The position numbers were made by a program, and so were the translations under genes. This document shows, one piece after another, positions 46,656 to 49,666 of a stretch of DNA of 53,981 nt (positions are counted from its first letter, which is position 1; each line of letters starts with the position of its first letter). The DNA is from a virus (lineage: Duplodnaviria; Heunggongvirae; Uroviricota; Caudoviricetes), in IMG/VR virus record IMGVR_UViG_2529292919_000008; one strand, 5' to 3'. Below the pieces are notes generated by a model that did no database searches, had not been told where the DNA came from, and was given only the letters and a program-made list of their open reading frames with translations.

Positions 46656-47941
46656 AGTACCGCAATGGCCGACACCTTCGCATGACTGAAGGTGATGGAT
46701 TCAAAATCAAACTTCGTCAGGGGTTTTGCCTTACCCTCACCCACCCAGCCGGCAGCACCGCCGGACACCTGGGCGTGCACACGGATATTGAACGGCACCT
46801 GACGAAGTGCAGGGATCCCGCCCTGACCAAATCGCCCGATAATGGTCTGCGGACGCAGGTAATCAATAAAGTCCTGTGCGTATTCCTGATATTCAGACAG
46901 GCTGCCTGCCCACTGCGGATCCGTGGTGGTCCCCGCGCCCACTGCCGATTTCAGGACATGATGCAGACGACTGTCATCCGGATACTGACGACGGGCCACT
47001 TCCAGGGCTTCAGATCGGACGCCTTTAGCCGCAGCCAGCGATTTGGCAAAGCGGGCGAAGCCAATCCCCTTATCCAGTTTCTGCTCCACACGGATCACCG
47101 GCGCAGAAGCCACCGCGGCCACATTCCCGTTACCGGCCTGTTTCACCGGCTGCGCCGTGGCGGCCTTACCGGCTTCCAGTTCACGCAGGCGCTTCAGGTG
47201 CGCATCCACCTGACGGATTTCCGCTGCGGTGTTGTCGTAATGCTCTTCCTCCTCCACATCCAGCGTGCGCCCTTCCTCTGCGGCTTTGGTCATGACCTCC
47301 TCAAGGGAGGCTGCCAGCGCTGCACGCTTGTTTTCAAAACTTTTAATCTGTTCGCCAATATTCATTATGGTCTTTTCCTTATGAAAAACGGTTGTTGACT
47401 GTGCCGCAGCGCCGGCAGAAGATGCGATTTTCACCACCGGTTTCCGGTTGCCGGACGCGGCAGAAAACGGGCGGTCGTAAGATTTAATGGTCCGGATGGT
47501 GCATTCCGCATTCGCGGGCACGGTGACGGCAGACACCTCCATCAGTTCCCAGCGCAGAAAATGCAGTCCGCCTCCGTCCAGAAAGGTGTATTCATGGGGA
47601 CGGAAGCCCACGGACAGCCCCCTGACCAGCCCGGTCTTAATGGCCGCCCAGACCTCATCCAGCCGGGCAGCCAGTTGCGACGGCATATCCGGTACGGGCT
47701 TCACCAGTGTTGCCGTGATTTCCAGCCCTTCGCTGACCCGGCGCACCGTACACTGCCCCACCGGGCGGGAATGGTCATGCTGCCAGAGAAACGGGATCGC
47801 ACTGCCAAACTCCGCGCCCTCCGGCTCCAGGATGTCACCATCCCGATCCGGAGAAGGCGTTGACGCAATCCCGGTGATCACTCGTTCATCCTCACTGAAG
47901 GATTTCACCGTCAGCAGGGAACAGGCCCGTTTAAGAGTCAC
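46656..47941 (-). pseudogene. 5' part of the prohead protease / major capsid fusion gene, split by the Mu-like insertion
   Basis: N-terminal HK97-type prohead protease domain (ITGIASTPSPDRDGDILEPEGAEFG...PFLWQHD...ELMEVSAVTVPANAEC) runs in frame into capsid sequence (...GWVGEGKAKPLTKFDFESITFSHAKVSAIAV). The frame then enters the Mu end and stops. Confidence 0.75.
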
Positions 47942-48004
47942 ATCAGCCTCCTGAAAATAAAAAAACCGCCGGAGCGGTTCGTGATGGTTACAGTGTGAAC
48001 AGGG

Positions 48005-49666
48005 TTATATGAAAAAAACCGCATATTCTTTCTTTTTCGGTTCCGGGTTAAGGGACATCAGGGAGACCGCATTGAACAGCGCCATCAGCGGGTCAATTTT
48101 TCCCCGTCCACTGGCCTGTTTGGTGATAAGAATGGCGTTACCTTTAGGCTCCACCCGGGCATTGCCGACACACCAGGCCATCAGGGGCTGGTCACCATGC
48201 ACCAGCACCCCTTCAGCCAGTTTGCGCTCGGTGGTTTTAATGGCCCCGCCCAGTTTCCAGCCCTGGCTTATCCCCACCACAATTCCGTCGGGGATCCCGG
48301 CTTCCGCCAGTGAATCCAGAATCTGCCCCACCCCTGACGGGTCAATACCGATATGGTCCAGTAACTCAGCCTCATGAATGCGACGCACATATTCCGCCAC
48401 TTCCGCCGTGTCATCCCCGACACGCCGGACAATGGTCATATCTCCACAGGCAACAAGATCCTGAAACCGGGACGCCTCGCTCTTCCGTCGGACCACCGCG
48501 GTTTCATGCGCCCAGGCATGGCCCCAGCCCAGCCATTCGCGGGTCTCCCGGTCACGCCCAATCACATACATCCCCAGCAGATCATCCAGCCCTCCGCCGT
48601 CAATCCCCACCGTCACCACATCAGCACGACGCAGGATATCGTCCAGGCTGATACAACGGCCCTGCTCTTCCCAGAAATCAGCCCCCGCCCAGCGGTCAGA
48701 GCGCAGGGCAAGACCAATTTCCACATTGGCGTGTTTTGACATGAACCCCCGGAATGTCTCTTCACCGGCTTCCCGGGCTTTACGGTACTCCCGGTACAGA
48801 AAGGCCTCATCCACTGAATAGCCGAGATTAGGATTGACCATGGCGAGGTTTTCCATCAGCAGGTGAGCCCCGCTTTCCACCATTTCAGGAGGGTGTTCAA
48901 ATATCACCGGCAGAAAGTGCGGATCATGAATTTTGCCGTCGCGCACATCCCGGGCGTACTGCAGTTTCTGTCTGAACACCCCGGCGGGCGGTTCATTCGA
49001 CTGGGTGGTCGTATACACCACAAACCCTTCCGGGCGGGAGGCAAGGCCGCCTATGGCTTCACGTAACATGTCCTCCGCCTTGCACTGCTTGCCAAACAGC
49101 CACAACTCATCAATCAGCGTACCCACGGACTTGATACCGGACACCGTATTCGGATCGGCTGCCACCACCTTCAGGGTGGTGTCTGTCACCCGGTGGGTGA
49201 TGGTCCGGATATGGGTCTGTACCTGGCAGAGGTCATCCAGATCATCGTCACGTCGTACCATATCCCGGGCAGGGTTGAAGGCGTTGGCCGCCACCTCCAC
49301 AGTCGGGGCCAGAATCGTGTAACCCGCCGCCTGCCGCCAGTTCAGTAACAGTGCAGTCATCATGATCCCCGCGGCCAGCGTGGACTTCGAGTTTTTCTTG
49401 GGGATAAGGATAAAAACTTCCTTGATATGGCGTACACCGGTCTGCGCATCGTAGGAGCCAAACAGGGCCGCCACCAGGTCAAACACCCACGGTGCACAGG
49501 ACTCCCCGAACGTAGGGCTACCAGGTGCATCCACAATCCGCAGTTGTTTAAAAATCGCCAGGGCATGTGCGGCCTCGTCCGGATAAATCGGATCCGGAAT
49601 AATCGACAGCCCCTTTTTCAGGCGCTCTGCCCAGTCCGGGCAGGCTGTGCTCCATACAGGTATCAT
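48005..49666 (-). CDS. Terminase large subunit (HK97-type)
   Basis: 553 aa. Segments FDLVAALFG...HIKEVFILIPKKNSKSTLAAG fit a TerL ATPase domain as recalled. Sits downstream of TerS. Confidence 0.8.
   Translation of the reverse strand: MIPVWSTACPDWAERLKKGLSIIPDPIYPDEAAHALAIFKQLRIVDAPGSPTFGESCAPWVFDLVAALFGSYDAQTGVRHIKEVFILIPKKNSKSTLAAGIMMTALLLNWRQAAGYTILAPTVEVAANAFNPARDMVRRDDDLDDLCQVQTHIRTITHRVTDTTLKVVAADPNTVSGIKSVGTLIDELWLFGKQCKAEDMLREAIGGLASRPEGFVVYTTTQSNEPPAGVFRQKLQYARDVRDGKIHDPHFLPVIFEHPPEMVESGAHLLMENLAMVNPNLGYSVDEAFLYREYRKAREAGEETFRGFMSKHANVEIGLALRSDRWAGADFWEEQGRCISLDDILRRADVVTVGIDGGGLDDLLGMYVIGRDRETREWLGWGHAWAHETAVVRRKSEASRFQDLVACGDMTIVRRVGDDTAEVAEYVRRIHEAELLDHIGIDPSGVGQILDSLAEAGIPDGIVVGISQGWKLGGAIKTTERKLAEGVLVHGDQPLMAWCVGNARVEPKGNAILITKQASGRGKIDPLMALFNAVSLMSLNPEPKKKEYAVFFI

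Follow-up and report, generated by a model that had tools for sequence, protein, structure and literature searches.

A known prohead protease-capsid fusion gene split by a Mu-like prophage, with a conserved start signal at codon 193

The locus raises the question of whether an HK97-type prohead protease that runs without a stop into capsid sequence is a new kind of head gene, and what this gene can still make. We analyzed the whole 53,981-nucleotide stretch of DNA, hereafter the window. The reading frame concerned lies on the minus strand at 46628..47941. According to the sequence and the ORF list, it extends from a GTG at 47941 to a TAA at 46628-46630 and comprises 437 codons with no internal stop. 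The GTG start (47941-47939, minus strand) has the ribosome-binding site AGGAGG at 47952-47947. The original prediction had described a protease fused in frame to the major capsid protein over 46656-49666. The frame proved real and the fusion was confirmed, with Peptidase_S78 followed by Phage_capsid/TIGR01554 once the gene was completed; the frame, however, is a fragment whose 3' third lies 36 kb away at 9593-10244. Of the fusion gene, the stretch 46656..47941 (minus strand) contains the first 428 codons and two of the three bases of codon 429, as indicated by the ORF list, the sequence and the reconstruction; in blastn this 5' part is colinear with E2348/69 and 99.87% identical. The rest of the frame (46628..46655, minus strand) is a foreign tail: the third position of codon 429, the eight codons 430-437 (VTSRFFLG) and the TAA all derive from the right-hand end of a prophage of Mu-like type.

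This transposable prophage occupies 36,406 bp on the plus strand (10250..46655), has the ends 5'-TG...CA-3' and splits the fusion gene. A 5-bp target-site duplication, AGTAC, flanks it (right copy at 46656..46660, left copy at 10245-10249). The duplication is visible in the sequence and in blastn, where two segments aligned to the uninterrupted allele overlap by 5 bp and the E2348/69 sequence is matched colinearly on either side at 99.9%. Position 46656, where the predicted feature began, is the first base outside the insert. The element carries subterminal ATTCTGGGCGG repeats and the domains MuA, MuB, Portal_Mu, Mu F, gpI, gpT and sheath; its place among Mu-like transposable phages is supported by HTH_Tnp_Mu_1, rve, Mu-transpos_C, an AAA_22 protein, Portal_Mu, Mu_F, Mu-like_Pro and gpT. 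A megablast search of its early region against phage records returned no close relative, and a search for gix-like inverted repeats near its tail-fibre cassettes gave nothing convincing.

Because the Mu-like phage transposed into codon 429, the fusion gene has been lost as a head gene. The 3' part (9593..10244, minus strand) takes up with the last base of codon 429 and ends with the stop after codon 645, about 36 kb from the 5' part; these last 216 codons encode the remainder of the HK97-fold capsid domain. At 46656-47941 there are 237 of the 453 codons of the capsid module (193-429 of 193-645), and the window holds no complete HK97-fold capsid coding sequence, the cut falling after codon 429. 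As it stands, the fusion gene in the window is a pseudogene, and the lambdoid prophage with this split head gene cannot build heads. The ORF at 46628-47941 should be annotated as a disrupted pseudogene rather than as a novel short fusion, and the lambdoid prophage as head-defective. The locus is thus a clean phage-in-phage case, in which a Mu-like element inactivates another prophage. A plus-strand ORF at 46592..47398 was rejected as a gene, since it is an antisense shadow of the fusion gene.

Removal of the insert restored a gene of 645 codons whose 1938 nt, when aligned with homologues, were 100% identical to the intact gene of E. coli E2348/69, located at NC_011601 1452930-1454867, and 98.2% identical over their whole length to that of BP-4795. 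The same gene is found as ORF56 of the Stx1 phage BP-4795 (AJ556162), annotated as 'putative major head protein/prohead protease', in phages 2851, YYZ-2008 and 1717, and in E2348/69 (WP_000173031.1). Unlike these copies, the gene here is split by the Mu-like prophage and no complete capsid protein can be encoded. Among 5426 complete E. coli genomes, 1252 carry the fusion gene, as do 93 phage records, and phrog_617 matched residues 1-639 of the restored protein with an E value of 2.8e-260. The neighbors also agree with the BP-4795 type: HNH, TerS, TerL, fusion gene, small ORF, portal and connector. With 98-100% nucleotide identity, a phrog_617 fusion and identical neighbors, the region belongs to a lambdoid prophage of BP-4795 (Marienburgvirus) type, whose packaging and head module it represents. 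That the locus is this known fusion gene interrupted by a Mu-like prophage is close to certain.

Within this module, TerL (553 aa; 48005..49666, minus strand; PF03354, PF20441, phrog_9, phrog_7622 and the E2348/69 RefSeq annotation) lies directly upstream of the fusion gene, as predicted, and ends 63 nt before it; the gap contains a hairpin and nothing else. Further upstream on the minus strand are TerS (49663..50259; PF03592, phrog_641) and, before the terminase genes, an HNH endonuclease (50551..50916; PF01844 and annotation). No portal gene stands between TerL and the fusion gene, again in agreement with the prediction. The portal is nevertheless present in the module: its gene lies downstream of the capsid gene at 6796..9381 on the minus strand (861 aa from the E2348/69-annotated start; PF04860 272 bits, TIGR01537 349 bits, phrog_2271 and annotation). 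We therefore rejected a satellite or PICI-like element, which a missing portal would have suggested; the gene set is the one that complete phages have. A small ORF of 73 aa (9327..9548, minus strand; phrog_829), located between capsid and portal, keeps its position in most loci, and the order TerS-TerL-fusion-small ORF-portal is conserved out to Alphaproteobacteria. The fusion and its gene order had been noted to differ from the HK97 and lambda layouts. They are not unusual, however, but form the standard BP-4795-type layout, which roughly one in four complete E. coli genomes contains and which has been annotated since BP-4795 was sequenced. The gene and the layout are already known, and their value as a discovery is small.

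We then considered the restored protein itself, which consists of a protease (residues 20-155), a variable linker, a helical scaffold domain (193-262) and an HK97-fold capsid domain (281-645). The protease domain (47477..47884, minus strand) matched PF04586 (Pfam Peptidase_S78; MEROPS S78, formerly U35) over residues 48-152 with 34.7 bits against a cut-off of 21. The NCBIfam equivalog TIGR01543 gave 46.5 bits, below its cut-off of 59. In the hhalign alignment to HK97 gp4, H55 paired with H65 and S110 with S114, His65 and Ser114 being the catalytic residues of gp4. The candidate catalytic residues His55 and Ser110 are both kept in 111 of 111 full-length relatives. These results place the N-terminal domain in the HK97-type prohead protease family, and it has the herpesvirus-assemblin-like fold; judged by sequence, it is a divergent member of the superfamily and not an equivalog of gp4. 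A profile search of PDB sequences returned capsids and no solved protease, and phmmer of the fusion protein against PDB sequences gave one weak capsid match and nothing else.

For the structure model, AF2 on the shallow alignment A1 (22 sequences, 73-99% identity) reached a pLDDT of 43 and was unusable, so alignment A2 was used instead and gave a pLDDT of 86 overall. In this model, a linker at residues 156-192 has pLDDT below 50 and is followed from residue 193 by the scaffold. This helical-hairpin scaffolding ('delta') domain (residues 193 to about 265; 47147..47365, minus strand) is supported by AF2, TIGR01554 and an EcCI2 alignment. Its helices at 195-222 and 229-262 have pLDDT of about 96, and it aligns with the N-terminus of the EcCI2 major head protein. 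For the restored protein, TIGR01554 scored 78.1 bits against 27.5, its alignment starting at residue 204, and PF05065 (Phage_capsid) scored 53.1 bits against 24.2; the capsid domain has the HK97 fold. The HK97-type capsid chain-mail involves the Lys169-Asn356 cross-link and Glu363. Since hhalign of A1 against HK97 gp5 gave no usable alignment, neither the HK97 cross-link residues nor the delta-domain cleavage site could be transferred to this protein.

An overlooked stop and restart separating two ORFs had been named as something that would refute the fusion. There is no stop, though a conserved in-frame restart signal is present: an internal ATG at codon 193 (47363..47365, minus strand), the proposed start of a capsid-only product. 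The disordered linker before it (47366..47476, minus strand) is hypervariable, with the lowest column conservation (0.21-0.27) and with indels that are always in frame, yet its ribosome-binding motif is kept (AAGGA at 47380-47376 here, 10 nt from ATG193 in the E. coli copy). M193 is invariant in A1 although the linker before it is hypervariable. Among 24 non-redundant loci, 22 have ATG or GTG with a ribosome-binding site at column 193, making it the top-ranked column of the gene, and Met or Val stands at or beside this position in 106 of 116 cluster representatives. Five stand-alone capsid proteins from unfused relatives start exactly at the residue-193 column. One of these five stands in the same gene order, after a separate 209-aa protease gene that ends in a stop and is followed by a 32-nt spacer with GAGGGA and by the capsid gene in a different frame. 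The internal ribosome-binding site of Enterobacterales is only moderate: AAGGA, at -5.6 to -6.2 kcal/mol, ranks among the top 4-19% of in-frame positions per gene. High-GC relatives have a strong GGAGG there, ranking within the top 0.5-1.3%. The start codon and a purine-rich motif persist from Enterobacterales to Marinobacter, Hydrocarboniphaga and Caulobacteraceae, while the encoded residues vary. As a control, column M580 showed a start codon with a ribosome-binding site in 17 loci owing to a conserved DDGG peptide; therefore, the co-occurrence of the two signals alone is no proof.

Because ATG193 and its ribosome-binding site are conserved and match the starts of unfused capsid proteins, we infer two products for intact copies, which probably make both the fusion and a capsid-only protein. 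The proposal goes beyond current annotation, and initiation at both codon 1 and ATG193 in these copies seems to us fairly likely. The intact head gene would encode a 645-codon polyprotein of protease, flexible linker, coiled-coil scaffolding ('delta') domain and HK97-fold capsid. From this one ORF, the full-length fusion would be translated from the first start codon (here GTG with a strong AGGAGG), and a more abundant scaffold-capsid protein from ATG193 with its own ribosome-binding site. Fusion subunits would co-assemble with ordinary subunits and so place the protease inside the procapsid, where after assembly it would cut off the scaffold domains and itself. The E. coli GTG start, right after a conserved hairpin, may help to set the product ratio. 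Initiation at ATG193, the proportions of the two products and the proteolytic steps are all inferred. We lean slightly toward reading the stop-less gene as a deliberate two-product design, with bulk scaffold-capsid protein and a minority of interior-tethered protease subunits.

The strongest competitor holds that intact copies make the full-length fusion alone, with protease and capsid at 1:1 and self-cleavage after assembly, the ATG193 signal being a relic of a two-gene state. None of the 25 intact loci breaks the frame through the linker, and of the top 150 cluster representatives at 50% identity, more than 130 are full-length fusions; therefore, the fusion product itself is under selection. 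The only moderate internal site of the enteric copies fits this reading as well, and so does an estimate of capacity: about 415 copies of a roughly 30 kDa internal protein (about 12.5 MDa) would fit a T=7 procapsid, similar to P22 scaffold loads. On the other hand, a relic signal should decay in the least-conserved linker, yet this one persists across distant taxa and is strong in the high-GC relatives. We regard exclusive production of the fusion as possible but on balance doubtful. The retained start signals could also have survived from a recent gene fusion without being in use, and the conserved Met193 could instead mark a processing site.

It is very improbable that the truncated 437-codon ORF has been retained for a new role, for instance as a stump that poisons the heads which related superinfecting phages assemble. 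Such a stump retains the promoter-proximal context, its ribosome-binding site, the complete protease domain, the scaffold domain and an N-terminal part of the capsid fold, but there is no sign of selection. The flanks are 99.9-100% identical to the intact allele, so the insertion looks recent. The Mu/capsid junction was absent from all complete RefSeq E. coli genomes searched, and Mu inserts almost at random. A further reading, that through an error of sequencing or assembly a stop codon was lost or the contig is chimeric, has nothing specific in its favor beyond odd database entries such as the 1079-aa TerL-protease-capsid protein P0001; it is effectively refuted by the same stop-less frame in thousands of independent genomes, by the exact Mu-type ends with their 5-bp duplication, and by other, independent E. 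coli copies of the Mu-like element that end at the same base as 46655 here.

The fusion gene was also compared with other known systems. In HK97, gp4 (the protease) and gp5 (the capsid protein with its delta domain) are separate and 3 nt apart, whereas here the stop is absent; the HK97 order is TerL-portal-protease-capsid, whereas here the portal follows the capsid gene. The HK97 protease is recruited non-covalently. The standard annotation category NF045541, 'prohead protease/major capsid protein fusion protein', has the same architecture but is a different sequence family, with 54 bits for the restored protein against a cut-off of 525; the phrog_4523 match was weak. Lambda C/Nu3 and herpesvirus UL26/UL26.5 are nested in-frame genes that give a long product with the assemblin-fold protease and a shorter, internally started bulk assembly protein. 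The fusion gene resembles such pairs in that an in-frame internal start, equipped with an initiation signal of its own, is conserved. What the two products share at the C-terminus is scaffold alone in lambda and herpesvirus, whereas here it would be scaffold plus capsid protein, the use of the internal start being proposed from comparative data. OsHV-1 has the same nested in-frame protease/scaffold arrangement (PMC11565193). If the two-product reading is true, a covalent tether at the interior-facing N-terminus would take the place of the non-covalent targeting used by HK97 and mirror UL26/UL26.5, the carrier here being the capsid protein. The conserved internal start would then offer a handle on the protease-to-capsid ratio in fused HK97-like phages, of modest interest to specialists in capsid assembly. 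On expression or processing of this family, our literature search turned up annotation-level mentions of such fusions but no transcripts, ribosome profiles or virion N-termini, and a CBASS preprint was rejected as a match, as it concerns scaffold-protease fusions and not capsid fusions.

Two further features of the module deserve mention. The hairpin with a T-run that had been predicted between TerL and the fusion gene exists and is conserved, but at 47950..47980 (minus strand), about 5-15 nt off the predicted 47945-47975. This terminator-like element, GAACCGC-TCCG-GCGGTTT, has its stem at 47980-47974 / 47969-47963, the loop TCCG and a T-run at 47950-47962. It is kept in nearly all related loci with changes in stem and loop, and a putative terminator is annotated at the equivalent spot in HK97, directly before the protease gene. 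The portal frame is open to 9477, and its product consists of an HK97-type portal domain and, C-terminal to it, a long extension in which a 54-aa unit is tandemly repeated (162 bp x 3.3 at 7262-7794).

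The reading frame for a protease-capsid fusion adjoining TerL, which the original prediction had described, was confirmed. It occupies 46628..47941 on the minus strand (GTG at 47941 to TAA at 46628-46630, 437 codons, with an AGGAGG ribosome-binding site 5 nt upstream of the GTG) and passes from a protease-like N-terminus into capsid-like sequence without a stop. TerL (48005..49666, minus strand; 553 aa, with a TerL_ATPase and a TerL_nuclease domain) stops 63 nt upstream, with no portal gene in the interval, as had been claimed. It is preceded on the same strand by TerS (49663..50259) and an HNH endonuclease gene (50551..50916). 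The C-terminal part of TerS carries a short tandem duplication (49742-49787, minus strand coding; …KSAKGDAAKKAAKGDAAKKAA…), and TerS is only 94% identical to its copy in E. coli O127:H6 E2348/69, compared with 100% for TerL.

What the original prediction overlooked is that this frame is the stump of a gene interrupted by a Mu-like prophage. The native reading extends to Leu429 and is followed by eight foreign codons and a stop; the C-terminus (…KVSAIAVL-VTSRFFLG) departs abruptly from capsid sequence. On the plus strand the junctions read …GTTACA/AGTAC at 46655/46656 and …AGTAC/TGTGGGG… at 10249/10250, delimiting an insert of 36,406 bp with 5'-TG…CA-3' ends, a flanking 5-bp direct repeat (AGTAC) and subterminal ATTCTGGGCGG repeats at both ends. 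The capsid frame restarts at 10244 and stops at 9593-9595 (minus strand), the final 216 residues thus being encoded 36 kb off. Excising the element and one copy of the repeat in silico yielded a gene of 1938 nt and 645 codons that matches an intact gene of E2348/69 from end to end with 100% identity. Both flanks are colinear with a 16-kb stretch of that genome at 99.9%, the 5 duplicated bases being all that the two flank alignments share. A few E. coli genomes have the right end of this Mu-like element at other sites, and there the similarity ends at 46655.

The insert is a complete-looking 36.4-kb Mu-like prophage (10250-46655, plus strand). It encodes a CI-type repressor (10562-11209), a MuA-type transposase (11628-13670; HTH_Tnp_Mu_1, rve and Mu-transpos_C domains) and a MuB-like ATPase (13689-14582), followed by Mu-type genes for the head, contractile tail and baseplate, among them Portal_Mu, Mu F, a Mu-like I protease, the gpT protein of the head and a tail sheath. 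No close relative of its early region was found in the phage collection. At 44188-46655, alternative tail-fibre/assembly cassettes lie on the opposite strand (45577-46017 and 46020-46418 on the minus strand), an arrangement like that of the invertible G segment of Mu. A search for clear inverted repeats flanking them found none, and no invertase gene follows in the 237 bp left before the right end, whereas in e14-like elements pinE lies 3' of the homologous DNA.

Profile matches, alignment with HK97 gp4 and an AlphaFold model show the reconstructed protein to consist of a protease, a linker, a scaffold ('delta') domain and a capsid domain, in that order. Peptidase_S78 (residues 48-152) and Phage_capsid (386-635) both match above threshold, and TIGR01554 spans residues 204-584, while TIGR01543, the strict equivalog model for gp4, falls short of its cut-off. 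Residues 20-157 align with gp4 (profile alignment, probability 85%, E 5.8e-6), placing His55 and Ser110 opposite gp4 His65 and Ser114; both are kept in all 111 full-length relatives examined. The N-terminal domain is therefore a protease, as predicted. The AlphaFold model (deep alignment, pLDDT 86) shows a β-rich domain at 20-155 and, beyond a disordered linker at 156-189, a helical hairpin at 195-262; after a short disordered segment (269-280) comes a large α/β domain (281-645).

The portal gene, missed in the original prediction, lies downstream at 6796-9381 (minus strand; Phage_portal 272 bits, TIGR01537 349 bits) and is the next large gene 3' of the fusion gene after a 73-aa ORF. We compared gene order in 26 loci, one genome per species, at 39-76% identity, including Proteus, Marinobacter, Hydrocarboniphaga, one Hyphomicrobiales and one Caulobacteraceae genome. 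Wherever flanks were present, the order TerS-TerL-fusion-(small ORF)-portal-connector was identical, and the fusion gene was a single uninterrupted frame in all but one decayed copy. The layout does differ from those of HK97 and lambda, but it is a conserved, old and widespread module rather than an oddity. The exception, in an Arsenophonus endosymbiont, stops early (65 codons), as would be expected of a decaying prophage.

The fusion gene is likewise already known and common, its oddity having been overrated. Of 5426 complete E. coli genomes, 1252 carry the reconstructed gene at ≥80% coverage; it is also present in 93 phage records, chiefly long-tailed Stx phages. The BP-4795 copy (ORF56) is annotated 'putative major head protein/prohead protease', those of YYZ-2008 and JLK-2012 'putative major head protein/prohead proteinase'; RefSeq uses 'phage major capsid protein', and PHROG 617 covers residues 1-639. 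Its cluster at 90% identity comprises 9916 sequences; homologues of 645 aa that carry both Pfam domains are found all through Enterobacterales. Among 50%-identity representatives, searched exhaustively, 1183 matched at E ≤ 1e-30, and more than 130 of the best 150 were full-length fusions of 630-690 aa. NCBIfam and PHROG each hold entries for protease-capsid fusions of other families; NF045541, scoring 54 against a cut-off of 525, is distinct from this one. In actinobacteriophages, too, such fusions are a standard annotation (PMC9671004).

Conservation along the protein is lowest in the linker, which contains indels, yet Met193-Asn194 never varies among close homologues. A start codon occupies column 193 in 22 of 24 non-redundant loci (ATG; GTG in Hydrocarboniphaga) and lies 2 or 7 codons upstream in the other two, always with AAGGA or GGAGG 6-10 nt before it, although the residues encoded by this motif vary (KEK, KGN, QEG, REG and others). 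Column 193 ranks first in the gene for start codon plus ribosome-binding site, and Met or Val stands at or adjacent to it in 106 of 116 cluster representatives. Five stand-alone capsid proteins start exactly there, and the alignment of the solved EcCI2 head protein begins with its residue 4 at residue 197. An unfused relative with the same gene order has a separate 209-aa protease gene ending in TAA, a 32-nt spacer with GAGGGA and a stand-alone capsid gene in a different frame. Taken together, these comparisons identify the fusion as a former pair of genes whose separating stop was lost while the putative initiation signals of the capsid gene were retained.

We consider it fairly probable that intact copies make both the fusion and a scaffold-capsid protein. 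The full-length fusion would be the minority product and the protein from Met193 the majority; co-assembly would bring the protease into the procapsid, where it would remove scaffold and protease alike, with a probable cleavage site between residues 265 and 290, where conservation and model confidence fall. About half as probable is that the full-length fusion is the sole product, with protease and capsid at 1:1. The enteric internal ribosome-binding site is moderate (top 4-19% of in-frame positions), and start codon and ribosome-binding site co-occur similarly at a control column, M580, there because of a conserved DDGG peptide. In the window the gene is broken, so none of the two-product scheme operates there; that the stump has acquired a new function is very unlikely, and an artefact is hardly credible.

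The hairpin predicted in the spacer that separates TerL from the fusion gene is present at 47980-47950 (minus strand) as GAACCGC-TCCG-GCGGTTT and a T-run. A scan of the region found 5 terminator-like matches against 5.1 expected by chance, so the case for it rests on conservation: nearly all related loci have a GC-rich stem, a 4-nt loop and a T-run just before the ribosome-binding site of the fusion gene, with stem and loop sequences varying between lineages and genera. In the HK97 record, a putative terminator is marked at the corresponding position, directly 5' of gp4. Because lambdoid phages antiterminate their late transcription, a simple transcription stop is unlikely; the hairpin may act as an insulator or stabilise RNA.

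At its C-terminus the portal is extended by about 450 residues, which include 54-aa tandem repeats (3.3 copies of 162 bp, 95% identical; 7262-7855 within the open frame 6796-9477, minus strand) and give a weak carbohydrate-binding-module match at the tail end. The extension differs in length from locus to locus, and BP-4795 has the equivalent region annotated as two ORFs (58 and 59). In one 1079-aa E. coli database protein (P0001) the ATPase domain of TerL is joined to protease and capsid domains, probably because TerL has been read through into the fusion gene by frameshift or miscalling. In several complete RefSeq E. coli chromosomes (H8, H15-H18, H20 and H24) the capsid gene lies at exactly 1726-3663; these records therefore begin at the prophage TerL start codon, which suggests that an automated re-orientation tool took prophage terL as the chromosome origin.
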